A stretch of 18,162 nt of DNA from a bacterium (GTDB lineage: Bacteria > Sysuimicrobiota > Sysuimicrobiia > Sysuimicrobiales > Humicultoraceae), in assembly GCA_041497675.1 (NCBI GenBank), contig JBGQGY010000078.1:1-18162 (forward strand), read 5' to 3'. How positions within the stretch are numbered: position 1 is the first letter of the stretch; the number at the start of each line of letters is the position of its first letter. Under the pieces are notes generated by a model. It had not been told where the DNA came from. It made no database searches and was given only the letters and a program-made list of their open reading frames with translations. Shown in pieces: positions 909 through 17,923 of the stretch. Position numbers and translations under genes: made by a program.

Positions 909-1865
909 ATGCCGTTTGCACATCTCGTAGGGATTTTCCCGCGGTCCGAGCGGGTCGTGGAACTCAGCCGCGCCGTCGATCGAGGCCGCGCGACGGCGGA
1001 CGAACTCTCGGCTGCCATCGCGGACGACGAGCGCCGGATCATCGCGCTTCAGCAGGAGGCGGGGCTCGACTATATCGTCGACGGACAACTGCGCTGGCAG
1101 GATCTGCTCCGGCCGTTGAGCACCGGTATCCCCGGGATGCACCCCAACGGGATCTCGCGGTGGTTCGACAACAACTCGTTCTACCGGCGACCGGTGATTA
1201 CAGGGCCGCTGCAGCCGACCGGCAAGGCCGTGTTGGCGGTGCTTGGCCTGAAGGCGCTGGCCGGCACGCGGTGGAAGGCGGTGCTGCCCTCCCCGTCCGC
1301 GCTGGTGGCGTTGTCCGAGAACACGTCGGGTCGAAGCGCCGATGAGGTGCTGACCGACGCGGTCGCGGTGCTGCGCGCCGAAGCGCGGGCGCTGGCCGAT
1401 GCCGGATGCGCGTATGTGCAGTTCAGCGACCCGGTCCTGGTGACACGCGCGAGCCGAATCGACGTTGGACGGGCGCGGTCCGCTCTGGAGCAGGTGACCG
1501 ACGGCCTGCGCACGCGAACCGCGCTGCACACGTTCTTTGGAGATGCCGGGCCGCTGTTGGGTGAACTGGTGCGCTTTCCGGTCCACGAGATCGGTATCGA
1601 TCTGTACGCGTCCACCATTGATGGGACAAAGGCGCGGGCGGCCGGGAAAACCGTGCTGGCCGGCGCCGTCGACGGGCGGAACTCGCTGGTCGAAGACGTG
1701 AGCACGCTGGTGGATCAGGCGCTCCGGCTGCGCGATGCATTGGGGGCGGACGACGTGGCGCTGGTTCCGAACTGCGACCTGGAACTGTTGCCGTGGGAGT
1801 GCGCAGAGGCAAAAACGCGACGCCTGGGCGAGGCCGCGACCGCGCTCAAAGCGAACGCGAGGTGA
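909..1865 (+). CDS. Cobalamin-independent methionine synthase, N-terminal-half-like subunit (split MetE)
   Basis: RBS CAGGAGG, ATG at 909. Motifs QQEAGLDYIVDGQLRWQD, RWFDNNSFYRRP and GAVDGRNS. The Zn motifs are degenerate (HTFF, PNCDL). Confidence 0.85.
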   Translation: MPFAHLVGIFPRSERVVELSRAVDRGRATADELSAAIADDERRIIALQQEAGLDYIVDGQLRWQDLLRPLSTGIPGMHPNGISRWFDNNSFYRRPVITGPLQPTGKAVLAVLGLKALAGTRWKAVLPSPSALVALSENTSGRSADEVLTDAVAVLRAEARALADAGCAYVQFSDPVLVTRASRIDVGRARSALEQVTDGLRTRTALHTFFGDAGPLLGELVRFPVHEIGIDLYASTIDGTKARAAGKTVLAGAVDGRNSLVEDVSTLVDQALRLRDALGADDVALVPNCDLELLPWECAEAKTRRLGEAATALKANAR

Positions 1866-1870
1866 GCGGG

Positions 1871-2983
1871 ATGAAGCTCTTTCCGACGCAGGAAATCGGG
1901 AGCATCGCCAAACCCGGCTGGCTGGTGAAGGCGACCCGGGGACAACGGCCCAATGCGGCCGACCTGGCCGACCTCGACCGCTGGGCCGAACGTCTGGGGA
2001 TCGACGGGACCGGCGAATTGAAGACGCTGCTGGCCGACGAGCACCACGACAAGGAGCGTGTCCGCGATTGGGGCGCGATCTTTGCCGTGCGCTTCTTTGA
2101 AGCGGCGGGTCTCGACGTCGTCTATGACGGTGAAGCGCGGCGGGTCGAGATGTACGAGTATCCGGTGCGCCGGATCGCGGGGTTCCACTTCTACGGCCAC
2201 GTGCGGTCGTTCGACAACAAGTACTATCGCAAGGCCGCGGTGGTCGACCGCGTGCGGTTGGTCGAACCGTTCCACATCGACGAGCTGAAGTTCGTGAAGT
2301 CGATTGCGCGGCGGCCGGTGAAGATCCCGATCACGGGGCCGTACACGCTGGCCGACTGGTCGTTTAATGAACACTACTTGAAGACCGTGGATGCGTCGGT
2401 CAAGGATCTTCGCAAGCGGTCCTATGCGGCCAAGCATGCGTTCACGCTCGATCTGGCGCGCGAGGTGCTGAACCCAACGCTGGAAGCGCTCGAAGCGGCG
2501 GGGGCCGACTGGATTCAGATCGATGAGCCGGCGGCCGCGACGCACCCCGATGAGGTGCCGATCCTCGTCGAGGCGTTCAACGAGTCTGTTCGCGGCATCA
2601 AGGCCAAGATCAGCATCCATATCTGCTACAGCAACTACCGCCTGCTCTACCCTGAGATGCTCAAGATGCGGGTGGACCACCTGGCGCTGGAGTTCAAGAA
2701 CACCGGCGATTTCAACGTGGTGCAGTTGTTCAAGGATCAGGGTGACCGGCGGGAACTCGGTCTCGGGGTGCTCGACGTCCACACCGACGTCATCGAGACG
2801 CCCGAAGAGATCAAGGACAAGATCCTCGAGGCCGCCCGGGTGTTGGGGCCGGAGAAGATCTGGGCGAACCCCGACTGTGGGTTGCGCACGCGCACGTGGG
2901 ACGTCGCGTTCACGAAATTGCGGAACCTGGTCGAGGGCGCGGGGCTGGCCCGCCAAGCGCTCAAAGGGCAGCCCGTAGGATAA
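1871..2983 (+). CDS. metE: Cobalamin-independent methionine synthase, catalytic C-terminal-half subunit
   Basis: PTQEIGS, GLDVVYDGEARR, ITGPYTLADWS, IQIDEPA, Zn ligands HICY...E and NPDCGL. ATG is 5 nt after the upstream stop. Confidence 0.92.
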   Translation: MKLFPTQEIGSIAKPGWLVKATRGQRPNAADLADLDRWAERLGIDGTGELKTLLADEHHDKERVRDWGAIFAVRFFEAAGLDVVYDGEARRVEMYEYPVRRIAGFHFYGHVRSFDNKYYRKAAVVDRVRLVEPFHIDELKFVKSIARRPVKIPITGPYTLADWSFNEHYLKTVDASVKDLRKRSYAAKHAFTLDLAREVLNPTLEALEAAGADWIQIDEPAAATHPDEVPILVEAFNESVRGIKAKISIHICYSNYRLLYPEMLKMRVDHLALEFKNTGDFNVVQLFKDQGDRRELGLGVLDVHTDVIETPEEIKDKILEAARVLGPEKIWANPDCGLRTRTWDVAFTKLRNLVEGAGLARQALKGQPVG

Positions 2984-4953: not shown

Positions 4954-4978
4954 GTTTGGCCCGCCCGCACGGGGGTAA
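4954..4978 (+). promoter_or_regulatory. SigB-type promoter of csbD
   Basis: GTTT-N15-GGGTAA, about 40 nt upstream of the ATG. Confidence 0.8.
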
Positions 4979-5018
4979 AACGTTGTTGCAAGGAAACCCC
5001 GTGCCAGGAGGTGCGCGA

Positions 5019-5234
5019 ATGAACAGTGACATGCTCATGGGCAGATGGAAGCAGCTGCGCGGTCGGATCAAGGCCAAGTGGGGCCAGCTGACCGACGACG
5101 AGTTGAACGAGGTCGAGGGCAACTACGAGATGCTCGTCGGCAAGATCCAGGAGAAGTACGGTACGACCCGCGCGCAAATCGAGCGCGAGCTCGACGCGTT
5201 CGCGTCGCAGGAGCCCGCACAGAAGCCGCGTTGA
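5019..5234 (+). CDS. csbD: CsbD/YjbJ family general stress protein
   Basis: RBS AGGAGG. MNSDMLMGRWKQLRGRIKAKWGQLTDDEL...GKIQEKYG is the YjbJ-type signature. Confidence 0.93.
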   Translation: MNSDMLMGRWKQLRGRIKAKWGQLTDDELNEVEGNYEMLVGKIQEKYGTTRAQIERELDAFASQEPAQKPR

Positions 5235-5265
5235 CCGGCCAGGTCGCAGGCGTGTGCGGGAAGCA

Positions 5266-5294
5266 CCGGGGGTCCTCCGTCCGGGGATCCCCGG
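5266..5294. terminator. GC-rich hairpin between convergent genes
   Basis: CCGGGGGTCCTC-cgtcc-GGGGATCCCCGG, a 12 bp stem including G-U pairs. No U tract. Confidence 0.5.
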
Positions 5295-5309
5295 ACTCTA
5301 TTGCGGCGG

Positions 5310-5585
5310 TCAATCTGTCCGGCCGGTCGCAGGTCGGGTGGCCTCGCGCAGCATGTCCAGCGTAGCTTCAAGCGTCTTGATCCGAAGTTTGCGGTCGTTG
5401 ATGAGCTTCTCCGGAGCCACACTGAGCCCGACGAAGTCCAAAAGTGCCAGATCATCGAGGTCCACGGAGATCGGAACGATCTGACCGGTGAGAAGACCAA
5501 CGTCACGCCGATAGCGGTCGATGGTCCGCTCGACGCGGGCCATCGCTGCTGTTCGCCCATCGACTGTCCGTCGTCCTCTCCCCAT
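5310..5585 (-). CDS. Hypothetical protein (alternative start ATG at 5543)
   Basis: 91 aa ORF with protein-like composition, directly downstream of a SigB-type promoter. Confidence 0.55.
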   Translation of the reverse strand: MGRGRRTVDGRTAAMARVERTIDRYRRDVGLLTGQIVPISVDLDDLALLDFVGLSVAPEKLINDRKLRIKTLEATLDMLREATRPATGRTD

Positions 5586-5597
5586 CCTTCGCTTTTG

Positions 5598-5623
5598 TTA
5601 CCCAGATCGGACATCGCTCAAAC
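5598..5623 (-). promoter_or_regulatory. SigB-type promoter
   Basis: GTTT-N16-GGGTAA on the minus strand. Confidence 0.75.
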
Positions 5624-5674
5624 GGGCGCATGAATCGCAGGCGCACAGGCCTCCATCTCCGGCTCTGCCGACAG

Positions 5675-5701
5675 GTTTGACGAAGCGGCCGCTCGGGGAA
5701 A
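5675..5701 (+). promoter_or_regulatory. SigB-type promoter of rsbW-sigB (putative autoregulation)
   Basis: GTTT-N17-GGGAAA. Confidence 0.65.
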
Positions 5702-5823
5702 AAACAGTGAGCGGGCTGAGATGGCGGAGGAGCAAGAGGTCGAGGACGAGAAGGCAGATGAAACCGGGACGAGGCATTCATCAGGTGCGTCACCTGACCA
5801 GTCACTTGACGCGAGGAGCGGCC

Positions 5824-6228
5824 GTGGAGTCCGACACGCCTTCTTTTCAGCCGGGCGTCCGCCAGGATCAGATCGAGCTGACGATTCCGGCTCGCGCCGA
5901 GTACGTGGCAGTAGTCCGGTTGACAATCGCCGGCGTCGCGGGCCGGATGTCGTTTTCCTACGACGCTAGTGAGGACCTGAAAGTCGCCGTCAGCGAGGCC
6001 TGCACAGTGGCTGTCCTTTCAGGCGGGCCAAAAGTGCAAGTCCGGCTTGAGATGGCCTCCGACCGGTTGGGCGTTCGCGTCACCTACCAGGCATCGGGAC
6101 GTTCCGACGAGCGTGGCCAGGAGCGCGAGCTCGCCATGCTCTTGATCGGCTGCCTGATGGATGAGGTTCGGACGGAGCGGCGCGGGCCTCAGCACGTCAT
6201 CTGGATGACGAAGAGACTTCAACGGTAG
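5824..6228 (+). CDS. rsbW: RsbW-family anti-sigma factor with degenerate ATP-binding motifs (alternative start ATG 5758)
   Basis: RBS AGGAG plus GTG. IELTIPARAEYVAVVRLTIAGVAGRMSFSYDASEDLKVAVSEACT...LMDEV...MTK closely resembles RsbW. Located directly upstream of the sigma gene. Confidence 0.88.
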   Translation: MESDTPSFQPGVRQDQIELTIPARAEYVAVVRLTIAGVAGRMSFSYDASEDLKVAVSEACTVAVLSGGPKVQVRLEMASDRLGVRVTYQASGRSDERGQERELAMLLIGCLMDEVRTERRGPQHVIWMTKRLQR

Positions 6229-6232
6229 GCTC

Positions 6233-7015
6233 GTGACTGGTCGCCCTAAACAGAAGCCGCGGGGCCAGCGCGTCCCGCGCGAGCTCTTCGTCGAGTACGC
6301 GCGCACCCGCGATCCGGCGATCCGCGAGCAACTCCTGCTGGCTCACTCGGCGCTTGCGGCCTATTTTGCTCGCCGGTTCGCGTATCGTGGAGAACCTCTG
6401 GAAGATCTCGCGCAGGTGGCTCATCTCGGCCTCCTCCAAGCGATCGATCGCTATGATCCTACACGGGAAGTCGAGTTCAGCACCTATGCGTCGGCGACGA
6501 TCGTTGGCGAGATCAAGCGATACTTCCGTGACAAGACGTGGTCCGTTCACGTGCCGCGCCGGTTGCGGGAGCGCAACAACGCGTTGATGCGGACTCTCGA
6601 TACTCTCACGGCGAAGCTGGGTCGTTCACCGACCATTCAGGAACTGGCCGAGGCGACGGGCGTTTCGTTCGAGAATGTCGTGGAGACCCTGGAGGTCGGA
6701 CTTGCCTACAATCCGGCGTCGCTCGACGCAGAGGTGCGCAACACTGAAGAGGACGATTCGTCCTCACTGCTCGAGTACCTTGGGACGGACGATCCGGCGC
6801 TGACGCACACGGAGGATCGGCACACGATCGAAGAGGCGCTGCATTCGCTCCCCGGGCGGGAGCAGTTAATCATCTGGCTGCGCTACTATGAGAAGCGATC
6901 TCAAGCAGAGATCGCGGAGCGACTCGGCATCTCGCAGATGCACGTTTCGCGGCTTCAGCGGCAGGCCTTGCACCGTCTGCGCGCTGAGATCACCAGCGAG
7001 CATCTTGCTTCATGA
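6233..7015 (+). CDS. sigB: SigB/SigF/SigG family RNA polymerase sigma factor
   Basis: EDLAQVAHLGLLQAIDRYDP...FSTYA...GEIKRYFRDKTWSVHVPRRL, GRSPTIQELA, and region 4 SQAEIAERLGISQMHVSRL. Confidence 0.95.
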   Translation: MTGRPKQKPRGQRVPRELFVEYARTRDPAIREQLLLAHSALAAYFARRFAYRGEPLEDLAQVAHLGLLQAIDRYDPTREVEFSTYASATIVGEIKRYFRDKTWSVHVPRRLRERNNALMRTLDTLTAKLGRSPTIQELAEATGVSFENVVETLEVGLAYNPASLDAEVRNTEEDDSSSLLEYLGTDDPALTHTEDRHTIEEALHSLPGREQLIIWLRYYEKRSQAEIAERLGISQMHVSRLQRQALHRLRAEITSEHLAS

Positions 7016-10000
7016 GCCGGCCGGTACCGGTCGATCCAGCGTCCAACTGAGCTGCACCGTGGTCCCGCCCGGCGTGGTGAAGGTCTTCACTCCATCCGAA
7101 AATCTCTGCATGATACTTGTTCCACGGCCGCGGCCGCGTTCGACCTGCGGCCGCCACTGACCGAAGTCTCTGACGGTCACAGTGATCGCGTTCCCGGTCA
7201 GCTCTCCTCGGACCACGATATTGCCACGGATGCCACGGTAGGCGTGCTCAACGACATTGAGCGCGGCCTCGCCCACCGCGATGACAATTTCTTCGGCGCG
7301 TCCATCGGACATGCCGAGGCGTCGGACATAGGTACGAACAAGCCGGCGGATCCGGCCGAGGTTTTCGGGTGCGGCGGACAGCGTGGCCGAAGCTGGAGCG
7401 TCCACCGGCAGGACATCCAAAATCAGCAGCGCCACGTCGTCGTCCGGTTCTGCGCCTCCGAGCGCGTGTTCGACCACCGCGTCCACGGCGCGGTCCGCCG
7501 GACTGTCTTGCGTCGCGCGGATTGCCTCCAGCAACCGCCGCTCGCCAACGAGAACATCACGGGTCGCCTCGATGAGGCCGTCGGTGTATGCGACCAGCCG
7601 GCTCCCAGGTTCCAAGGTGGTGTGGGCCTCACGGTACGGCGCCGACAAGGAAACGCCCAACGGGGGACCAGTAGACTCTAGTTGTTCGACGCCGCGATTC
7701 GTCAAGGCGAGCGGGGGAGGGTGGCCGGCCCCGCTGTACACCAGATTTCCGGTGAATGGATCGAAGGCTGCGACCCATAGCGACACCTGCAGGCTGTCGG
7801 CCACGCTGCACAGCAGGCGATTGACGGTTGTAAGGATGCGTACCGGCGTCTGACCCTCGAAAGCGTACGCGCGCACGACGTGTCGCACCTGCCCCATCGC
7901 TGCGGCCGCGGCCATACCGTGGCCGGCCACGTCGCCGATGCTCAGCAGCAGCTGATCATCTGACAGCAAGATTGCGTCATACCAGTCGCCCCCCACCTTG
8001 ACCTCGGGATCCGCCGGACGGTACGTGGCCCCCAGACTCGCAAACGGTGTCTTTGGCAGATCGACGGGGAGCAGCGCTCGCTGTAGAGTTTCCGACAGCT
8101 CTCCGATGCGCCGCTGGGCCTGCTCGAGGAGCTGGAAGCGTGAGATCGTGATCGCGAGCTGATCGGCAATGGGTTGGACGAGCTTCACGTGCGCCTGCGA
8201 GTAGAAGCGGGGTTCATGATGCTCGAGTTTCAGCGTGCCGATGGGCTTTCCGCCCACGCTCATCGGCACAACCGCGTAGGAGCGAATGCCCGCGCTCGCC
8301 AGCACAACGTCTTCGCTAAACTCGTGGGTTTCGGTCGTGTCCTCACGGACGAACGGCGTTCCGGTGTCGAGGACCCAACCGCGCGCCGTCCCGGCCGTGG
8401 GACCCTCCAGGCTCTCGCGCGGTGCGCTCAGCCGGAGTCCCTTAGCGTAGGGCACAATGAGCGAGTTGCGGTCTGGACCGTACAGCGAGACCGCCAGACG
8501 GTCAAAAGGCAGCAGGAGCTGTAACGCCTCCGCGAACTCGTCGAAAGCTGCGCCGGGATCGAGCGAGGACGCGGCGATGGAGATGACACGACCTGCAGCG
8601 TTGACTCGTCGGGCCTCACGCTCGGCGTCCTCCAGCGCCCGGCGCTCGGACGCCGCCAGCCGCGCGTTCGTGATTGCGACCCCCGCGCGGTCCGCGATGA
8701 GTGATGCCAGCCGTTGCTCGTCATCGTCCCAGCCTCGTGCCGACTCGCTCATGACAGACAGAATGCCGAGCGGTTCGCCGCCCGTATAGATCGGCACAGC
8801 GAGCAGTTCGTGTACTCCGAGCGGGCCGAACATGCTGTCGGCCAGGGGGAGCTGTGCGCGGAGGTCCCCGATGTTCGGATCGTCGGCGGTCAACAAGAAC
8901 GGACGCCGGCCGTCGAACAAGGCGGTTGCGAACGGATGATCGACCGGGAGCGGCGCGGCGTCGAACGCGGACCGGAGACGCGTGATCTTTGAGGGATCCT
9001 TGTGGAAGATCGCGCCAAGCCGCGCCGACCGCGCGTCCGGATCGATCAGGGAGATCGCACACCATTCCCCGAAAGACTCGGCACAGCGTTTGGCGACCGT
9101 ATCGAGCAGCACTGCGAGGTCTCGTTGCGTGGCAAACTCGAGCATCATATCGGCAAGGAAGGCCGTGTGCCGCTCGCGTCGCCGTTGCTGGTCGCGGGCG
9201 CGAATCTGCTGCAAGGCAAGCGCGACGCGGTCGGCGGCCGCCCGCGCCACCGTCACGGTCTCATCGTCCCAGACGTGGCCCGGCTTCACGAAGATCGCCA
9301 GGATCCCCAGGGCATCGTCTCCTGCCAGCAGTGGCAGGAACAAGGCAGCGTCAAACTGGAAGCGCGCCAACCAATCGACCCACGCACGCACATCTTCTGG
9401 TACCGTCTCGATCGACTGATCTACCCGCAGCACCATCATTGGCTCAGCCGCTGCGAGCATGCGTCGCAGCAGCGGTCCGCCGTTGGCGAGCGACGCTTCT
9501 GCGAAGGCGGATGTCAGTCGTTCTCGCCCTGCTGTGTCGGTGGAGAAGAAGGCAGCGGGCTCAGGCACTCCCGTGCGCTGGCGGCTGAGAATGAGGCCGC
9601 ATGCGTCTCCCAAGGATTCCGTGAGTTTCTGGCAAACGGCTACCGCAAAATCCTTCCGCTCGGGTTGGAGCATCCGCAGCGTGGCCACTTCGGCGAGAAA
9701 CGTGTCGCGCTGTTTCTGGTGGCGGCTTCTTGCCAGGTCCTCACGCAGCCGCTCATGATACCTCGAGGTGTGCGTTCCCGCGAGCGCCATCAGCGCGCCG
9801 CTGAACAAAAATATCAGAGCCGGGAGGAGTTCGGTGCGCAGCCCGTCGAGGACGTTGCCCACGTGCGGGGTCGAGATGTAGCTGGCCAATACCGTACTGG
9901 CCAAGACGCTGACGAGCCCCGGCCACAGCCCTCCAAAATAGGAGACGAGGAACAGGCCGGGCATGTACAGGAAGAGGAACTGATAGGCGAACAGCTTCGC

Positions 10001-10117
10001 CAGGATCACGAGAATCAGCGAAACAAGGTAGGGGACGAGCACCGCTGCGAGGAACGCGAGGGCCGTCCTGACCGCTCGACGGCGAAGTCCTACTCCTTTG
10101 AAGCGACTTTCACCCAT
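7010..10117 (-). CDS. Membrane sensor: N-terminal TM bundle (DUF4118-like), three GAF domains, SpoIIE/PP2C phosphatase, C-terminal RsbW-like HATPase
   Basis: Hydrophobic N-terminus with GGLWPGL. GAF motifs LFLPL..LGIL, LLAVPI..LGIL and YAVVPM..IGTL. PP2C motifs LQRALLP, VGGDWYD, GDVAGHG, YTDGLIE and DDVALL. HATPase motifs EAALNVVEHAY, VRDFG and GRGRG. Confidence 0.93.
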   Translation of the reverse strand: MGESRFKGVGLRRRAVRTALAFLAAVLVPYLVSLILVILAKLFAYQFLFLYMPGLFLVSYFGGLWPGLVSVLASTVLASYISTPHVGNVLDGLRTELLPALIFLFSGALMALAGTHTSRYHERLREDLARSRHQKQRDTFLAEVATLRMLQPERKDFAVAVCQKLTESLGDACGLILSRQRTGVPEPAAFFSTDTAGRERLTSAFAEASLANGGPLLRRMLAAAEPMMVLRVDQSIETVPEDVRAWVDWLARFQFDAALFLPLLAGDDALGILAIFVKPGHVWDDETVTVARAAADRVALALQQIRARDQQRRRERHTAFLADMMLEFATQRDLAVLLDTVAKRCAESFGEWCAISLIDPDARSARLGAIFHKDPSKITRLRSAFDAAPLPVDHPFATALFDGRRPFLLTADDPNIGDLRAQLPLADSMFGPLGVHELLAVPIYTGGEPLGILSVMSESARGWDDDEQRLASLIADRAGVAITNARLAASERRALEDAEREARRVNAAGRVISIAASSLDPGAAFDEFAEALQLLLPFDRLAVSLYGPDRNSLIVPYAKGLRLSAPRESLEGPTAGTARGWVLDTGTPFVREDTTETHEFSEDVVLASAGIRSYAVVPMSVGGKPIGTLKLEHHEPRFYSQAHVKLVQPIADQLAITISRFQLLEQAQRRIGELSETLQRALLPVDLPKTPFASLGATYRPADPEVKVGGDWYDAILLSDDQLLLSIGDVAGHGMAAAAAMGQVRHVVRAYAFEGQTPVRILTTVNRLLCSVADSLQVSLWVAAFDPFTGNLVYSGAGHPPPLALTNRGVEQLESTGPPLGVSLSAPYREAHTTLEPGSRLVAYTDGLIEATRDVLVGERRLLEAIRATQDSPADRAVDAVVEHALGGAEPDDDVALLILDVLPVDAPASATLSAAPENLGRIRRLVRTYVRRLGMSDGRAEEIVIAVGEAALNVVEHAYRGIRGNIVVRGELTGNAITVTVRDFGQWRPQVERGRGRGTSIMQRFSDGVKTFTTPGGTTVQLSWTLDRPVPAGS

Positions 10118-10458
10118 GCCCTGGCTCCGGCCAGCGCCTCAGCCTGCGACACGAACGTAGGAAACACATCCTTCAGACCCGTAATCGTGAATATACGGTC
10201 GATCTGCGGTTGGTTGAAGACTAAGCCCAGCATGCCGCCGGCTCCCTGCACGTGCTTCAGCGCCGATGTCAGGATCGACAGCGCGGTGCTGTCCAAGTAG
10301 GTCGTGTCCAGCAGGTTTACCAGGAAGTGAACCTGCCCGGTCGCCAGGAGCTCATCCAGCGCCGCCTTCAACTTGGGCGAGGTGTAGAGGTCAATTTCCC
10401 CAGACACGTCGACGACCGGGACGACTCCATCGCGTCGCGTACTGATACTTGCTTCCAC
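10090..10458 (-). CDS. rsbV: STAS domain anti-sigma factor antagonist (RsbV/SpoIIAA family)
   Basis: RBS AGGAGG plus GTG. VSGEIDLYTSPKLK, YLDSTALSIL (phosphoacceptor Ser) and RIFTITGL. Confidence 0.92.
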   Translation of the reverse strand: MEASISTRRDGVVPVVDVSGEIDLYTSPKLKAALDELLATGQVHFLVNLLDTTYLDSTALSILTSALKHVQGAGGMLGLVFNQPQIDRIFTITGLKDVFPTFVSQAEALAGARAWVKVASKE

Positions 10459-10551
10459 GCGACCGTCACCTCCTGTAAGATGTGCCCCCGGCCTCATCAG
10501 CATAGCATAGTCGATGCACGGGTCTCATGTTGCACTCCCCTCTAAGAGCAC

Positions 10552-10594
10552 GTTCCCCTCCCGGTCCGGGTTTGAAACCCGAGCATCGAGGTAA
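10552..10594. promoter_or_regulatory. Overlapping divergent SigB-type promoters (rsbV operon and collagen-like gene)
   Basis: The palindrome GGGTTTgAAACCC (10568-10580) supplies GTTT on both strands. Plus strand: GTTT-N15-AGGTAA. Minus strand: GTTT-N17-GGGAAC. Confidence 0.6.
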
Positions 10595-10632
10595 AACATA
10601 GTCGATAGGCTTCAAAGGAGGGAGGATAGCCC

Positions 10633-10929
10633 ATGAGCAAGTTCGCAGCAGGTTTGATGCTCCTCATGCTCTTGACACCACTGGCCTTGGGCACCGTCGC
10701 GTTGGCCCAGGGCGATCCGCAGCAGCCGCCTCCAGGTCAGCCCGGGGCACCAGGAGCACCTGGGGCTCCCGGTGCGCCCGGCCCGCAGGGGTCGCCCGGC
10801 CCCGCGGGGCCATCGGTCCTCGGATTAGACCCGGCCTTCGTAGTGGTCATCGGAGCATTGTTGCTGCTGGTGATCGTCCTTGCCATCGTAGCGGTGTCCC
10901 GCGGCGGCGAACGGCCGACAACGTCCTGA
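10633..10929 (+). CDS. Small exported, membrane-anchored protein with a short collagen-like Gly-X-Y repeat
   Basis: RBS GGAGG. Signal peptide ending ALA-Q, then GQP-GAP-GAP-GAP-GAP-GPQ-GSP-GPA-GPS, then a C-terminal TM helix. Confidence 0.85.
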   Translation: MSKFAAGLMLLMLLTPLALGTVALAQGDPQQPPPGQPGAPGAPGAPGAPGPQGSPGPAGPSVLGLDPAFVVVIGALLLLVIVLAIVAVSRGGERPTTS

Positions 10930-11007
10930 CTTGACGGGGGCCGGGTTCGAGCCTCGGCCCGCGCCACGCCTTGCGGCTCTGTGTGTTCGCAGGGAGCAAT
11001 CATCAGA

Positions 11008-11257
11008 TCAGCTCGCCCCCCGATCCTTCAGAATCGTCATCGCGATCTTCTCACGGTCAGGCGTACCCCGCGCAAGGGATCGCACGAAATGCGTAAGCTG
11101 CTCCGCCGGCATCGGTAGCTCATAGGGGTCAACGACCGCTTCGATGAGTACAGGGGGCCTCGATCGTGACACCGGTTCCGCCGCATGCGTGCGCAAAGGC
11201 GGCGGAGTCGATCGGCTGCAACTCGCACCCGTACTCGGGGTTACCCAGGAACACCAT
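11008..11257 (-). pseudogene. Remnant of a TPP-dependent pyruvate oxidase/dehydrogenase (PoxB/YdaP-like) C-terminus
   Basis: One frame gives MVFLGNPEYGCELQPIDSAAFAHACGGTGVTIE. After a deletion/frameshift, another frame gives PVLIEAVVDPYELPMP...FVRSLARGTPDREKIAMTIL. The rest of the gene is absent. Confidence 0.75.
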
Positions 11258-11344
11258 TTACCTCCGACCATATCCACATCCCGGCCCGCTCCCACGTGGC
11301 GGCGTTCGTGTGGAAAACGCGTCAAGTGTGCCCGTCCGAACAGC

Positions 11345-11468
11345 AGAGAAAGAGAGAGCGCGCCGGTCTTGGCAGATCAAGTGAATGACCCCGTTGGCCG
11401 GGCGTTGACAGGATCAGTGACCTGATGTACCGGCGCGTCTCTCAGCGAAGGCCGGAGCTTCGCCAACG
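11345..11468 (-). ncRNA. Candidate SigB-dependent structured small RNA (no family recognised)
   Basis: Lies downstream of a GTTT-N15-GGGTAA promoter. It has a 5' hairpin plus a three-helix rod whose wobble pairs form only on the minus strand, and a pyrimidine tail. Confidence 0.5.
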
Positions 11469-11474
11469 CATCTT

Positions 11475-11499
11475 TTACCCGGGACGCTAAGCAGCAAAC
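11475..11499 (-). promoter_or_regulatory. SigB-type promoter with no intact CDS downstream
   Basis: GTTT-N15-GGGTAA on the minus strand. Confidence 0.72.
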
Positions 11500-11659
11500 A
11501 CGGTACAGGACAACTACACATGTGCGCGCTGCTACTCGGTACCCTGGGCAGTAGTAGGCCGCGAGGTCTGGATCCCGGCGGCGAGACAAGTCCTGTGACT
11601 TATCCTCACCTGCACCTCGGGTATGGAGCCCGAGTTGGCCTTCCGATTGGCTAGACAAC

Positions 11660-12004
11660 CTAGCCACCGCGATGGGGACGCTCGTAGAAGCTGGGTGCCA
11701 TTTCCGCCGGACTCACAAAGTCAAGAATGTCCACTCGTTGGGTACGTTCCGGGCTGGCTCGGCGAAGGTCGTCGTCCGTGACGACAACATACTGGTCTTC
11801 TTGGTATTCGTACCCTCGGACGATGTCCTCATTCGCCACGGGCTTTCCGGTGCGCTTATTGATCTTTTGATACCCGATTGGCGAAAAGTCCCGCTTGTCT
11901 AGTAGGGCGAAGTTCAGTTCATCACGGGTCTCGGCCGGGTAAAGCGTGACTGGGACGTTGACGAGCCCAAAACGGATGTGACCCTTCCAGATGGCTTGCG
12001 GCAT
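11660..12004 (-). pseudogene. ku: Truncated NHEJ Ku protein (114 aa N-terminal part)
   Basis: RBS AAGGAG. MPQAIWKGHIRFGLVNVPVTLYPA...IVRGYEY...VDILDFV...FYERP, after which similarity ends abruptly. Confidence 0.9.
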
Positions 12005-12036
12005 GATAACGGCTCCTTGGACTCTCAGTGTGCAAT

Positions 12037-12062
12037 TTACCGCCATTTGGGTCGCCGTAAAC
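12037..12062 (-). promoter_or_regulatory. SigB-type promoter of ku
   Basis: GTTT-N16-CGGTAA. Confidence 0.62.
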
Positions 12063-12147
12063 GCTGTGCGGGCGGGCGCATCTAGCGCGTCTAGGACGAA
12101 GCGACTCTGGAGAAAAGCGGGGTACTCTTCACAAGGAGGTTGGCGGG

Positions 12148-12351
12148 ATGGCTCGTTACGGGAAATCGGCGCAGAGATCTGTCGAGCGAGCGATGCGAAA
12201 ACGCAAGCACGGCACCTTGCGGAGCGGCCGCAGCGGCAAGAGCGTGACCAGCAAGAAACAGGCGATTGCGATCGGGCTATCAGAAGCGCGGAAGAAAGGC
12301 GGCAAGGTCCCGTCGAGATCACGAAGTCGAGCGAAAAGATCGAAGGGATAG
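12148..12351 (+). CDS. DUF6496-like small basic protein
   Basis: RBS AAGGAGG. GTLRSGRSGKSVTSKKQAIAIGLSEARKKG signature. Confidence 0.88.
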   Translation: MARYGKSAQRSVERAMRKRKHGTLRSGRSGKSVTSKKQAIAIGLSEARKKGGKVPSRSRSRAKRSKG

Positions 12352-12392
12352 CACATGTCTACCCCGAGGTTGGAGCGCGGCTCGACCATACT

Positions 12393-12539
12393 CTAGGCCG
12401 TGCGCCCGCCCGTGATGAAATTGTAGAGTAGAACGATCGCCGCAACGACGAGGAGCAGGTGAATGAGGCTTCCTGCCACATGGAGGCTGAAGCCAAGAAT
12501 CCACAAGACGAGAAGAACGACAAGCAGAGTCCACAGCAT
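12393..12539 (-). CDS. lmo0937-family (DUF5670) small membrane protein, copy 1 (48 aa)
   Basis: Not in the ORF track. RBS AAGGAG. MLWTLLVVLLVLWILGFSLHVAGSLIHLLLVVAAIVLLYNFITGGRTA. Confidence 0.9.
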   Translation of the reverse strand: MLWTLLVVLLVLWILGFSLHVAGSLIHLLLVVAAIVLLYNFITGGRTA

Positions 12540-12583
12540 CGCGTATCTCCTTTTGCGCTCGATTCTGCGCTATGCCCCAAGTT

Positions 12584-12609
12584 TTTCCCCGATCGTGCAG
12601 GCGATAAAC
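12584..12609 (-). promoter_or_regulatory. SigB-type promoter of lmo0937-family copy 1
   Basis: GTTT-N16-GGGAAA. Confidence 0.7.
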
Positions 12610-12649
12610 CAACCGTGTGGGCGCGTGGGAACCGAGCATCCCCTCGCGT

Positions 12650-12674
12650 GTTTGGCACTTCACAGAGCGGGACA
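12650..12674 (+). promoter_or_regulatory. SigB-type promoter of the yciF-like pseudogene
   Basis: GTTT-N15-GGGACA. Confidence 0.55.
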
Positions 12675-12718
12675 TAACCAAGACGCAGGTCCATTTCTCA
12701 CTCGTGAGGTGAAGGTCC

Positions 12719-13054
12719 ATGAAGATGTCGTCGTTGCGCGATTTGTTTTGTAGAGGAGCTCCGAGACCTCTACAATGCTGGGTCTCAGCTCGTGAAGGCG
12801 CTGCCCAAGATGGTGAAAGCGGCACAGAACGCCTGAAGCAGGCCTTCAAAGAGCATTTGGAACAAACCCGCGGCCACGTCCAGCGCATCGAGGAGATCTT
12901 TGAGGGTCTCGACGGGAGCCCGAAAGGCAAGAAGTGCGTCGGGATGGAGGGTCTCATCGCGTAGGGAAGCGAGTTAATGAAACAGGACGGAGAAGAGGCC
13001 GTGATCGACGCGGGATTGATTCTGGCCGCACAGAAGGTCGAGCATTACGAGATT
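12719..13054 (+). pseudogene. YciE/YciF (DUF892) ferritin-like pseudogene
   Basis: MKMSSLRDLF, then a +1 shift to VEELRDLYNAGSQLVKALPKMVKAA, then a shift back to LKQAFKEHLEQTRGHVQRIEEIF...CVGMEGLIA, then TAG at 12962-12964, then IDAGLILAAQKVEHYEI, then truncated. Confidence 0.9.
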
Positions 13055-13090
13055 CGCGGAGCGCAGACTAGCGAATCCGAAACAAGGAGC

Positions 13091-13116
13091 GTTTGGTCGA
13101 CGAAGCCCACGGGTAA
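13091..13116 (+). promoter_or_regulatory. SigB-type promoter of the intact DUF892 gene
   Basis: GTTT-N16-GGGTAA. Confidence 0.78.
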
Positions 13117-13169
13117 AATCGCAACGCAAATCAGCGTGACAGATTCCAAAAAAGGAGGGCGGAGAAGCC

Positions 13170-13847
13170 ATGGACGAGCGTCAGCCGCAATCTGACGAAC
13201 GTGAACAGCCAGGCCACCAGGACGACGATTGGGAGCGAGGGGGACGCCAGGCTCCAAAGCCGGGACCGGGGCACATGCCGGAAAGGAATCCACAACAGCC
13301 CGGCGGCGAGAGAATGCCGGATGCACCGGGAGTCCCGCGAGTGCGACGCCTTCTTACCACGTTACGAGATCTGTATGTTGTCGAGCTGCGAGACCTCCGG
13401 AGCGCTGAGGGTGCTGTCGAAGCGGCGTTTGCACAAATGGGACAAGGCGCGTCCACGGTCCCTCTTCAAGGGCTACTCACGCAGTGTGTTCAACAAGCCC
13501 GGCGCCACATTGGGGCGCTTGATGCCGTACTCGCCGAGACGAGACCGGCGAATCGTGATGACCAGAGTCAGGGGATGCAAGGAATTGCCGATGCGGGTAG
13601 CCGGCTCGTCCAGGAGCACCAGGCGTCTGTAGCGCTGGATGCCGCTCTGATCGGCGTCGCCCAAAAGGCGGCCCTCTACAAGATGGCGGGTTACGACTCG
13701 GCGCGCTGTTTTGCCGGTGTCCTTGGTGATGCCGAGACGCACCGCGTCTTGCAGGAGTGTCTGAACGACGAAGCGGATGCCGATCGCTGGCTGACGCGAC
13801 TTGCCGAGGACCTGGTCAATGTCCGCGCGCTCGCGCCGGAGCGTTGA
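13170..13847 (+). CDS. YciE/YciF (DUF892) ferritin-like protein with a low-complexity N-terminal extension
   Basis: RBS AAGGAGG. TLRDLYVVELRDLRSAE, GMQGI, LDAALIGVAQK, LNDEADADRWLTRLAE and VNVRA. Confidence 0.85.
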   Translation: MDERQPQSDEREQPGHQDDDWERGGRQAPKPGPGHMPERNPQQPGGERMPDAPGVPRVRRLLTTLRDLYVVELRDLRSAEGAVEAAFAQMGQGASTVPLQGLLTQCVQQARRHIGALDAVLAETRPANRDDQSQGMQGIADAGSRLVQEHQASVALDAALIGVAQKAALYKMAGYDSARCFAGVLGDAETHRVLQECLNDEADADRWLTRLAEDLVNVRALAPER

Positions 13848-13957
13848 CGTCCGCTTCGTGTGGTCTCGACGACCGGCCACGACGGCGCGAGCGCTGCAGC
13901 CCGGGCTTGCCTTCAAGCGAGCACTCTAGTGAGCGGAATGTGTGGAGGTGGCGCAGT

Positions 13958-14125
13958 ATGAGACAGGTGAAGAAAGTGTCCCCTCAGACCAAGCCCCGAA
14001 AGAGACGAGGGACGCAGATCGACGAGACGAAGGTGCGGGCGCCTTCGACACGCCCAGCCGGCAGAGTTCGGCGCGCGAAGGTTTCACCGGCTGCCCCGCC
14101 GCGCTGGGACGACCAGGCTCCTTGA
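13958..14125 (+). CDS. Small basic hypothetical protein (55 aa)
   Basis: GGAGGT RBS before ATG. K/R/P-rich. No family recognised. Confidence 0.4.
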   Translation: MRQVKKVSPQTKPRKRRGTQIDETKVRAPSTRPAGRVRRAKVSPAAPPRWDDQAP

Positions 14126-14154
14126 CTCAGGGCGCTTCGCTCGGTTGTCGCCCG

Positions 14155-14289
14155 TTATGACAGGCGAGACCGTGGCCGCAGTTCGCCCTCTACGTCAAAA
14201 ATCTCCGCGACCTCGATGACAACTCCAGCCTGTCGGTGGTTGAGGACGACCAGGAACGCTTCCCCCTGATCCATACCCTGCCAGATCAT
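14155..14289 (-). CDS. Possible small hypothetical protein (44 aa) or gene fragment
   Basis: GGGAGG just upstream. MIWQGMDQGEAFLVVLNHRQAGVVIEVAEIFDVEGELRPRSRLS. Confidence 0.3.
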   Translation of the reverse strand: MIWQGMDQGEAFLVVLNHRQAGVVIEVAEIFDVEGELRPRSRLS

Positions 14290-14381
14290 TCCTCCCGGTG
14301 CTCGCCAGACCTCGAAACTAGGCAATTGGGTCTCCCTCCCAGTCTAGTAGGATCACACGACGGACCGCGGGTGTGAGGGCC

Positions 14382-14561
14382 TTACGACACTCGAGCCTCT
14401 CGCGAGGCGATCAGGAAGGCAACACCGCCGGCAATCGCTAAGACGCCCAAAATTGGAGGGAGCGACGCCACCCCAAACGCGCCGCCCGCTCCGATCGCGT
14501 ATGCGACAGAGGCTATGCTTAGCGCAATCAAGAGCGTTGCGACCATCATCAGGCGCCGCAT
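14382..14561 (-). CDS. Small two-TM membrane protein (59 aa), shortened paralog of 15639-15869
   Basis: Not in the ORF track. MRRLMMVATLLIALSIASVAY...LPPILGVLAIAGGVAFLIASREARVS. Starts 16 nt after the upstream stop. Confidence 0.7.
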   Translation of the reverse strand: MRRLMMVATLLIALSIASVAYAIGAGGAFGVASLPPILGVLAIAGGVAFLIASREARVS

Positions 14562-14577
14562 CGTCGGTGGTCCGGCC

Positions 14578-14730
14578 TCAGATAGCCGGTCTTCGCCACT
14601 GAATGATGTTGATCACGAGAACGGCCAGCGCAATGACAAGAAGCAAGTGGATGAATCCACCGAGTGTGTAGGACGAGACCAAACCCAGCAGCCACAGCAC
14701 TAACAGGATTACAAAGATCGTCCAAAGCAT
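14578..14730 (-). CDS. lmo0937-family (DUF5670) small membrane protein, copy 2 (50 aa)
   Basis: Not in the ORF track. MLWTIFVILLVLWLLGLVSSYTLGGFIHLLLVIALAVLVINIIQWRRPAI. Confidence 0.9.
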   Translation of the reverse strand: MLWTIFVILLVLWLLGLVSSYTLGGFIHLLLVIALAVLVINIIQWRRPAI

Positions 14731-14775
14731 CTCCTGGCCCCTTTTTTAGGATTTGTCCTCAGAATTCGCGCCAAT

Positions 14776-14802
14776 TTTCCCCGCTGCCGCGTCGTTCAAA
14801 AC
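14776..14802 (-). promoter_or_regulatory. SigB-type promoter of lmo0937-family copy 2
   Basis: GTTT-N17-GGGAAA. Confidence 0.65.
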
Positions 14803-14845
14803 ATGTCGCCACTCGTATGCGCGACGATTATCCGTCGCCCCATTG

Positions 14846-14872
14846 GTTTCGGACCACGGCGCTCCGGGGAAA
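14846..14872 (+). promoter_or_regulatory. SigB-type promoter
   Basis: GTTT-N17-GGGAAA. Confidence 0.6.
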
Positions 14873-14928
14873 ATTCTCACGATCTTACCGTGCCCCGCAT
14901 TTCGAACATGGTGTTGGGGAGGCCACAA

Positions 14929-15057
14929 ATGAGCTCAAAGACAAACATGGGACGTGTGAAGCGCAATTTTATCGAATGCGCCTCAGCCCTTGGCCACGCC
15001 CACGGATCTGCGGTCCGAAAGCGTCCGGGCGGTTGCCGCGGCGGTGAGCCAGGCTGA
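14929..15057 (+). CDS. Small hypothetical protein (42 aa) or gene remnant
   Basis: GGGAGG RBS and an upstream SigB-type promoter. MSSKTNMGRVKRNFIECASALGHAHG... Confidence 0.35.
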   Translation: MSSKTNMGRVKRNFIECASALGHAHGSAVRKRPGGCRGGEPG

Positions 15058-15077
15058 TTGAATCGCACGTACAGCAT

Positions 15078-15103
15078 GTTTGAGCGACGGTGGCCTCGGG
15101 TAA
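15078..15103 (+). promoter_or_regulatory. SigB-type promoter
   Basis: GTTT-N16-GGGTAA. Confidence 0.75.
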
Positions 15104-15156
15104 AAGACAGCAGGCAGCTTGCGAACGGACTCTGGGAACTCAAAGGAGGGAGTCGC

Positions 15157-15429: not shown

Positions 15430-15467
15430 CTGAGGCTGGCGAGCGAGTCGCCGGCCTCAGCGTTTTT
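15430..15467 (+). terminator. Intrinsic terminator
   Basis: CTGAGGCTGGCGA-gcgag-TCGCCGGCCTCAG followed by cgTTTTT, between convergent genes. Confidence 0.8.
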
Positions 15468-16819: not shown

Positions 16820-17923
16820 ATGAGGACGCATTCGCGCCGATCACGGACTGTGGTTCTGATCCTCCTGCTGCTCATCCCGGTGCTTGCAACGCCGTTTGCC
16901 GCGTCGGCCGCGCCGGCCGAGGACCGTGAGATCGCGCTGGGTCGCCAGGGCGCCGCATCGCTGGAGGCCCGGTTCCAGCTCGTGAAGGAAGGCCCGGCCG
17001 CCGAGCGCGTGAAGCGCATCGGTACGGCGATTGCCGTCGTGACCGAACGACCGCACCTGCCGTGGTCGTTCAAGGTCGTGAACATCGATCAGGTCAATGC
17101 GGTGGCGCTGCCGGGTGGCTTCGTCTACGTCACCACGGGCCTGCTGAATTTCGTGCGCAGCGATCACGAGCTGGCCGGTGTGATGGCGCACGAGGCTACG
17201 CACGCGGCGCACGGCCATGGCATGATCATGATGCAGCGGTCCAACCAGGCGTCGATCGCCATGATTCTGGTGGCGATCTTCACACGTGACCCGGCCTTGA
17301 TCCAAGGGACCAGCATCGTGTCCGGCGGGATGATCGCCGGCTACTCGCGCGAGATGGAGCGCGAGGCGGATCTCACCGCCATCAGCTATCTGAGCAAGAC
17401 CCCGTACAATCCCGTGGGCATGCTGACCTTGCTCGAGCGCCTCCTGCGCCTGGAGCAGATGAACCCGCAGCCTCAGGCGCGAGCGTTCGCGGACCATCCT
17501 TCGACCGCCGAGCGCGTCCAGTACGTCGAAGCCGAGTTGCGCGCGCGCCAGATCGCCCTCAACCGCCGCGCGCCGGCCAACTATCTGGTGCTGACCGTGC
17601 GCGAGGGCTCGGACGCCGGGGTGGTATACGGGGAGATCCTGATCAACAACCGGTCGATCGTCCGTCTGGCGGATCTTCCACGGATCAAGGATGCCGGCGA
17701 ACTCCTCGATCGTCTCTTCGACACGGATCTGGAACCGTACGAAATCGTCGCTCGCGAGACTGCCGACGGGTGGGGCCTCTTTGCCCGCGGGTGGGCGGTC
17801 TTGCGGCTGAGCGCATCGGATACGCCGCAGGGGAGCAGCGTGCGCGAGTTCGCGGTGACCATTTTGACCCGCCTGCGATTAGCCATCGACGAAGATATCC
17901 GTCGCCGGAGACTGCAGGGCTAG
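16820..17923 (+). CDS. Exported M48 family zinc metalloprotease
   Basis: Signal peptide, VNAVALPGG, ELAGVMAHEATH (HEXXH), YSREMEREAD and DHP..ER. It has a C-terminal extension. Confidence 0.92.
   Translation: MRTHSRRSRTVVLILLLLIPVLATPFAASAAPAEDREIALGRQGAASLEARFQLVKEGPAAERVKRIGTAIAVVTERPHLPWSFKVVNIDQVNAVALPGGFVYVTTGLLNFVRSDHELAGVMAHEATHAAHGHGMIMMQRSNQASIAMILVAIFTRDPALIQGTSIVSGGMIAGYSREMEREADLTAISYLSKTPYNPVGMLTLLERLLRLEQMNPQPQARAFADHPSTAERVQYVEAELRARQIALNRRAPANYLVLTVREGSDAGVVYGEILINNRSIVRLADLPRIKDAGELLDRLFDTDLEPYEIVARETADGWGLFARGWAVLRLSASDTPQGSSVREFAVTILTRLRLAIDEDIRRRRLQG

Follow-up and report, generated by a model that had tools for sequence, protein, structure and literature searches.

The closest described counterparts of the element discussed here are small RNAs (sRNAs) made under the control of stress sigma factors. 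SfdS (F6) of Mycobacterium tuberculosis has a typical SigF promoter, its RNA is absent from a sigF mutant, and it is conserved in mycobacteria and detected by Northern blotting (PMC8557902). The same logic, from a stress sigma factor to an sRNA, holds for SbrA and SbrE of Listeria, RsaA of Staphylococcus aureus and a sigma-B-dependent sRNA reported in Clostridioides difficile (PMC3377988, PMC9266662, PMC13753753). These Bacillota RNAs have mapped ends, terminators and targets. We compare with these systems a locus in contig JBGQGY010000078.1 (C78 in our numbering; 18,162 nt, hereafter the window), one of the 272 contigs of the 3.97-Mb assembly GCA_041497675.1 from an uncultured lineage of the phylum Sysuimicrobiota. 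A SigB/SigF-type promoter on its minus strand (11499-11474) is followed by no gene, and the DNA behind it would be transcribed into a structured RNA of ~120 nt (11468-11345, minus strand), its ends being predicted on the assumption that transcription begins 6-8 nt past the -10 box and finishes at a U-rich tail. Like SfdS, the candidate combines a GTTT...GGGTA promoter that serves no coding sequence (CDS), a short RNA with predicted structure and a stress sigma factor under the control of a partner switch. SfdS has a family of its own in Rfam; the candidate reaches no Rfam gathering score, is located in a deletion scar and is without homologues beyond its own population. Where the Bacillota RNAs have terminators and targets, the candidate has a long interrupted rod with a weak U-rich tail, and a C-rich loop that varies between strains; loops rich in C commonly act as seeds in the sRNAs of S. 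aureus.

We conclude that the motif at 11499 is very probably a genuine SigB/F-type promoter, working or very recently working to judge from its sequence and surroundings, and that a structured transcript from this orphan promoter is plausible. On balance, such a transcript probably arises as a by-product of decaying genes; at most it is a very young RNA, and we do not regard it as an established regulator.

The promoter carries the strongest evidence. Positions 11499-11476 of the minus strand read GTTT-N15-GGGTAA, as had been claimed, and the extended form GTTTG-N14-GGGTAAA (11499-11474) is a perfect match. This motif fits both the M. smegmatis SigF consensus GTTT-N14-19-GGGTA (PMC4694148) and the Bacillus subtilis SigB consensus GTTTAA-N12-14-GGG(A/T)A(A/T) (PMC8346170), and the promoters of M. 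smegmatis SigF, B. subtilis SigB and the Streptomyces coelicolor SigB homologues resemble the sites of this contig in having GTTT and GGGTA 14-16 nt apart (PMC4694148, PMC8346170). The genome has 12 copies of the short form GTTT-N15/16-GGGTA, 5 of which fall in this contig. The extended core GTTTG-N14-16-GGGTAAA (12 core bases) has five perfect sites in 3.97 Mb, four of which lie in the window, whereas 30 shuffles that kept the composition within 1-kb blocks gave 0.33 on average and never more than 2. The fifth perfect site (contig C225, 433-406) is without an obvious open reading frame (ORF) downstream. When one mismatch is allowed, seven distinct sites appear in the contig (4954+, 5623-, 5675+, 10570+, 11499-, 13091+ and 15078+), and that at 11499 is the only one lacking a ribosome-binding site and start codon within 195 nt; the absence of an intact CDS behind it was correctly noted. 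Five of its six sister sites have a Shine-Dalgarno sequence and an ATG 37-56 nt downstream.

A likely reader of the GTTTG/GGGTAAA motif is encoded 4.5 kb from the orphan promoter. The gene at 6233-7015 (plus strand) specifies a sigma factor of the SigB/SigF/SigG family (272.9 bits in NCBIfam TIGR02980, whose cut-off is 234.35) and is surrounded by genes for an RsbW-like protein, a GAF-SpoIIE-HATPase sensor and a STAS protein. Our comparison set for the phylum comprised 93 other genomes, including two of the same genus, and 87 of them hold an orthologue of this sigma factor at E <= 1e-30. Sigma genes with at least 90% identity to it lie on JGI contigs of 14 kb (P0012) and 10 kb (P0018). Near the sigma orthologues of relatives the relaxed motif has 6 matches in 39.3 kb (11 loci), four with the full GTTTG...GGGTAAA and one more with GGGTAAG. 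Boxes and spacing, a cognate sigma gene and enrichment of the motif ahead of genes all speak for a promoter of the SigB/SigF/SigG kind at 11499, and with sequence, genomic enrichment, sigma gene and published consensuses in agreement this part of the original prediction holds.

The predicted transcript is strongly structured. Its minimum-free-energy fold (RNAfold) reproduces all the helix, loop, tail and G-U coordinates proposed earlier for the ~120 nt. A 5' hairpin of 7 bp (GGCGAAG/CUUCGCU, 11464-11458 with 11450-11444; minus strand) is followed by a 92-nt imperfect palindrome, the 'rod' (11443-11352), with 31 pairs in three helices: 11443-11429 with 11367-11352, where C 11358 is bulged, 11424-11418 with 11379-11373, and 11416-11408 with 11394-11386. 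The apical loop of the rod has 13 nt, CAACGCCCGGCCA, and the rod is followed on the minus strand by the pyrimidine-rich tail UUUCUCU (11351-11345), a weak U-tract with 5 U in 7. The minus strand of the 126-nt stretch 11470-11345 folds at -57.0 kcal/mol, compared with -40.5 +/- 3.6 for 200 dinucleotide shuffles (z -4.54), so that the fold stands out from shuffled controls. The claimed strand specificity of the rod fared worse. The plus strand of the same stretch reaches -54.9 kcal/mol (z -3.44), the rod by itself has -46.5 kcal/mol (minus strand) and -45.2 (plus strand), a difference of 1.3, and the four G-U pairs on which the claim was built (11464/11444, 11421/11376, 11413/11389 and 11410/11392) are worth only ~2 kcal/mol. 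Because the plus strand folds almost equally well, the rod is better described as an imperfect DNA palindrome whose strand specificity is weak. Among all 3,608 windows of 126 nt in the contig (step 10, both strands, energy regressed on G+C), the candidate ranks 5th (-2.8 standard deviations), behind windows at 16991/17091, 15552 and 761; the fold is notable among native windows, without being exceptional. The 3' end looks no firmer, as a terminator scan does not call a terminator at the tail of the rod. In the clear terminators of the contig (842-871 and 15430-15460), a compact G+C stem closes a loop of 4-5 nt, and the nine bases that follow the stem include five or more T in a row; to judge by sequence, the rod is unlike them and does not resemble a canonical terminator.

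Promoter, hairpins and tail are all enclosed in a 415-nt scar (11258-11672) between exact breakpoints. Contigs in which the pyruvate oxidase gene is intact part from the window at 11257|11258, going on as NTLGQIKWEQ, and those in which the Ku gene is intact do so at 11672|11673, going on as YLEPAPKNEK; 11258-11672 is therefore foreign to both genes. For a comparison of strains we aligned contigs from four public runs (X16, X18, X19 and X20) to 11000-12100; the first three are among 19 DNA runs that contain the locus. Two contigs, X19 record 14 (11000-11652) and X18 record 10 (11200-11797), bridge the scar, and since its junctions are spanned in other metagenome runs it is not the product of a chimeric assembly.

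On one side of the scar lies a truncated Ku gene (12004-11660, minus strand), in which codons 1-111 are homologous to Ku and the stop codon, at 11662-11660, falls in the scar. The Ku ORF (11660-12322) matches positions 2-102 of the 190 of the Pfam Ku profile, and the full-length Ku of genome G019 aligns to 12004-11672 with 67% identity over residues 1-110. A continuation of the Ku frame through 11660-11440 was considered and rejected: a permissive tblastn search with the full-length G019 protein gave nothing past residue 110. On the other side lies the C-terminal remnant of a pyruvate oxidase, or pyruvate dehydrogenase (quinone), with residues 480-514 and 530-578 (11257-11020, minus strand). 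It occupies two frames, 11257-11153 and 11154-11020, and shares 88-91% identity with P0001, a metagenome protein. No counterpart of this oxidase was found in the 40 nearest genomes, the best relatives besides P0001, in the metagenome set and in species genomes, are 74-75% identical, and none of 160 loci with oxidase relatives contains anything like the scar. The contigs of X16, X18 and X19 have 12 extra bases at 11103, which restore four oxidase residues (TVTT).

Within the scar, a 72-nt remnant of an IS21-family istA gene (11530-11601, plus strand; ~24 codons including YSVPW..GREVWI) lies 30 nt upstream of the promoter. Positions 11531-11575 form a 45-nt DNA match to the istA of genome G016 and are 82-89% identical to IS21 istA genes, including genes on X16 and X18 contigs. 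A profile of 13 IstA proteins of the phylum scores 13.5 bits against the scar (E 7.4e-6 over 6 frames), compared with 11.3 bits for the best of 3,000 random 415-nt segments of the genome; Pfam PF22483 matches the remnant below threshold (E 0.001-0.003). IstA at E <= 1e-10 is absent from this genome and present in 28 of the 93 other genomes of the phylum. Beyond the 72 nt, istA gave no NCBIfam match and none in a search of 5.8 billion proteins. We also considered whether the remnant extends under the hairpin, where the YSVPW frame reads, collinearly, PRWPGVDR; the 13-sequence profile aligns to 11530-11601 only.

The locus is still losing DNA. Contigs of X18 skip 58, 61 and 187 nt (in regions including 11141-11200 and 11797-11859), and in a sister species (G001) position 12637 of the window is joined directly to 15473, with the match running on to 16697. 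It follows from this junction that ~2.8 kb of the stress island, including DUF892 and two promoters, is absent there. The contig concerned (L152, G001:C296) matches window positions 12189-12290 and 12390-12637 at 97% identity and lacks 12291-12389; as it begins at 12189, it is uninformative on the scar. The Ku breakpoint has a parallel of its own. The closest Ku orthologue, from another genus (L005, G011:C297, ORF 1141-2820, minus strand), has an in-frame gap of ~46 residues relative to L006 988-1812, reading FYDRPH|SVLLLN where G019 has FYDRPYYLEP...DEVLVLN, and this gap starts within one codon of the cut in the Ku of the window (FYERPH|). The breakpoint is thus common to two lineages, and may be an old mobile-element insertion site or a deletion hot spot.

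We propose the following course of events, the order of which we infer. An accessory stress island would have lost DNA between the Ku gene and the pyruvate oxidase gene, leaving the 415-nt scar. An IS21 element would formerly have been inserted there and then been almost wholly deleted itself, down to the 72-nt istA piece, and the gene once served by the promoter would have been lost in these IS21-associated deletions. Under stress, polymerase carrying the neighbouring SigB/F-family sigma factor would start near 11467, 6-8 nt past the -10 box, and make an RNA consisting of a short 5' hairpin and the 92-nt imperfect palindrome, which would end at the weak U-rich tail (~120 nt) or run on into the oxidase remnant. 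A weaker motif, GTTTA-N15-CGGTAAA, with two mismatches to the consensus, lies upstream of the Ku fragment (12062-12037, minus strand) and could allow read-through into the scar; read-through from this Ku promoter may add to the RNA.

If the candidate were an established sRNA, relatives of it might be expected, and we found none. Rfam gave 0 matches in the window at gathering thresholds and, at E <= 10, a single match to an unrelated viral element (E 5.1). By BLAST the element has no homologue in 40 relatives and only short matches (E >= 0.005) in the 93 other genomes of the phylum; nine of these (E 0.005-0.1) were checked, and as all fall in unrelated ORFs we read them as chance. A covariance model built from the single sequence and the proposed structure recovered only the element itself from 94 genomes, the next matches having E 0.81 and 0.84. 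Exact-pattern scans with the apical region and with the promoter/5' hairpin, which detect exact matches only, gave 0 in metagenome, species-genome and viral collections. A plasmid collection yielded no DNA match and one chance-level protein match (E 6), and the 96-aa minus-strand ORF spanning the region matches no Pfam family. In its own genome the element has no second copy, and neither arm of the rod matches elsewhere. Rfam, BLAST and covariance model alike thus yielded neither a family nor a homologue, and without a homologue there was nothing for covariation testing. As far as sequence collections can tell, the element appears confined to one species-level population, and the candidate falls short of an established sRNA in both conservation and Rfam membership.

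Within that population, X19 differs from the window at 11367, 11401, 11410 and 11451, and at 11491 in the promoter spacer; X16 differs at 11401 and X20 at 11451 and 11516, and X18 is identical across 11200-11797 save two letters elsewhere. Variable sites number 4 in the 126 nt of the RNA stretch, 5 in 345 nt on the oxidase-remnant side and 2 in the 202 nt of 11471-11672, and among the compared contigs there is no sign of extra constraint on the RNA stretch. The change at 11401 turns the apical CCC into CUC in both X16 and X19. A divergent variant of the apical region in X16 (a loose end and a 179-nt contig) could not be placed in register. X20, the only RNA-library run with any part of the region, is a soil run prepared with oligo-dT and contains 0.04 of the sampled words. 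Its 79-nt contig covers 11265-11318, and its 275-nt contig covers 11424-11551, crossing the proposed start and reaching 83 nt further upstream; DNA carry-over is possible in this run, and assembled contigs carry no information on RNA starts, ends or strand.

Several observations weigh against a mere by-product. To call the transcript one is a judgement, and both the activity of the promoter and the ends of the RNA we infer. None of the 200 shuffles folds as well as the minus strand. Both promoter hexamers are intact in every covering contig (X18, X19 and X20). The two X19 changes that fall in helices both keep the minus-strand pairing, 11367 turning U-A into U-G and 11410 turning U-G into C-G, and with all four X19 changes of the RNA stretch applied the minus strand folds at -59.5 and the plus strand at -53.4 kcal/mol. 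These changes lean towards a minus-strand RNA, with the proviso that they are two events, neither of them a double change, and by our own estimate would be seen in ~1/4 of cases by chance. Finally, the X20 strain has 11265-11318 and 11424-11551 at 97-100% identity with both flanks different, so that this core could have been kept as a unit, which is the best hint of preservation, one of the two joints resting on 31 letters only. To the left of 11265 this strain shows a loose end of 25 letters, and between 11551 and 11907 it has 114 different letters.

The strongest competitor of the by-product is a young, species-restricted SigB/F-dependent sRNA of ~120 nt, in which the 5' hairpin would protect the RNA, the rod and U-rich tail would terminate it, and a loop, for example the C-rich one at the apex or the CUCC of the 5' hairpin, would base-pair with stress mRNAs. 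Small RNAs that depend on SigB or SigF are already known; the promoter is genuine, the fold stable (z -4.54) and the U-rich tail confined to the minus strand, and both X19 helix substitutions and the X20 core, retained at 97-100% among other flanks, are as this proposal would have them. Yet no homologue exists among the 93 other phylum genomes, two of them congeneric, and the location is a deletion and insertion-sequence scar rather than a stable intergenic region. Moreover, the rod folds on either strand, differs from the clear terminators of the contig and is not called by the terminator scan, the apical CCC reads CUC in X16 and X19, conservation is no better than that of the flanking pseudogene DNA, and in X20 the RNA-library contig extends 83 nt beyond the proposed start. 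A small RNA may be made from the orphan promoter, but that it is a functional sRNA seems to us unlikely. Of the sigma-dependent sRNA originally put forward, a genuine promoter, the lack of a CDS and a stable fold remain; its strand specificity is weak, and we found no homologue, Rfam family or canonical terminator. New sRNAs and transcripts may arise from the debris of pseudogenes or insertion sequences, and the candidate is like such debris-derived sRNAs in having a promoter beside recent, structured, non-coding scar DNA, while its transcript is a predicted one. That we have here an sRNA caught at birth, with a promoter stranded by IS21 driving a hairpin of scar DNA and the unit 11265-11551 kept despite diverged flanks, is a doubtful proposition.

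A similarly doubtful proposition takes the opposite direction: the promoter would be a dead relic and the palindrome purely a product of DNA rearrangement, formed by repair fold-back or inverted duplication or left over as the terminator of a lost gene, with no stable RNA of its own. A palindrome that folds nearly equally on both strands, in a patchwork of an istA piece and two truncated genes, at a locus that keeps losing DNA in related strains, is much what such an origin would leave, as are arms that match nowhere else in the genome. The same lack of a match tells against it too, for no source sequence was found for either arm. The 12 core bases of the promoter are also intact in three other strains, which is unexpected for long-dead DNA, although these strains are close, and the matching sigma factor is encoded nearby with its motif at six other sites of the contig. 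We accordingly retain a promoter that is, or very recently was, working, with a by-product transcript, as the better account.

The mobile-DNA and coding-remnant explanation, namely that the hairpin is a miniature inverted-repeat transposable element (MITE) or other dispersed repeat, or that hairpin and promoter are decayed Ku or istA coding sequence, is very improbable. It has in its favour an imperfect inverted repeat, the istA piece 30 nt upstream of the promoter and the frequency of IS21 in the phylum (28 of 93 other genomes). As a repeat, however, the element would not be single-copy in its genome, missing from the 93 others and without an exact copy in three public collections; as coding sequence it has no support either, given that the istA alignment is limited to 11530-11601, Ku homology ends at 11672 and the 96-aa ORF belongs to no Pfam family. 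Anticipated as a possible refutation of the sRNA, a coding or mobile remnant is present, then, at 11530-11601 (istA), and the promoter and hairpins lie outside it. The last suggestion, that of a structured leader 5' to the decayed pyruvate oxidase gene, is the most improbable of all and is rejected, for although an oxidase remnant does follow on the same strand (and the SigB regulon of B. subtilis includes ydaP, a pyruvate-oxidase-like gene), homology sets in abruptly at codon 480 with nothing N-terminal upstream (11258-11470 has no likeness to an oxidase N-terminus by permissive tblastn, E <= 10), contigs with the intact gene leave the window exactly at the sharp breakpoint 11257|11258, and 0 of the 160 loci with oxidase relatives hold scar-like sequence.

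Around the scar, the contig is a SigB/F-regulon island, with the seven motif sites spread over 18 kb (4954-15104). On the plus strand, the sister promoter at 4954-4979 precedes a CsbD-like gene (ATG 5019; Pfam CsbD, 59.4 bits), and the CsbD-like gene, the following rsbW and the sigma gene may form an operon read from it. A site with one mismatch (GGGTAAC) lies on the minus strand at 5623-5597. Two further plus-strand sites with one mismatch, at 5675-5701 and 10570-10595, stand ahead of the RsbW-like gene (ATG 5758) and of a gene for a 98-aa membrane protein (ATG 10633), which carries a collagen-like Gly-Pro run. The site at 13091-13117 (plus) precedes a DUF892 gene (ATG 13170), and that at 15078-15104 (plus) a small ORF (15157/15173) followed by the canonical terminator at 15430-15460. 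Just before the intact DUF892 gene with its promoter lies a second, frameshifted DUF892 gene, with profile positions 31-78 in ORF 12719-12964 and 88-111 in ORF 12977-13195. A second Ku is encoded elsewhere in the genome (contig C44, 14080-14400, in an open frame of 308 aa); it is full-length and 35% identical to the truncated copy, so that end joining need not be lost with the copy in the window. As in general stress regulons, the motif clusters here ahead of CsbD, DUF892, RsbW and Ku-type genes; unlike the promoters of those regulons, the copy at 11499 has no gene, and its host belongs to an uncultured lineage.

In summary, the solid gain is the stress-sigma promoter consensus of an uncultured lineage, GTTTG-N14-16-GGGTAAA, together with the stress island in which it is found, and with this consensus the stress regulons of related genomes can be predicted. 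The copy without a gene is an illustration of promoters outliving their genes in decaying accessory islands. Should its transcript have no function, the locus would be a caution that a promoter and a strong hairpin in a pseudogene scar are insufficient to call an sRNA; should it be functional, it would constitute a dated and rare natural example of the de novo birth of an sRNA from the debris of gene decay, in an uncultured phylum.

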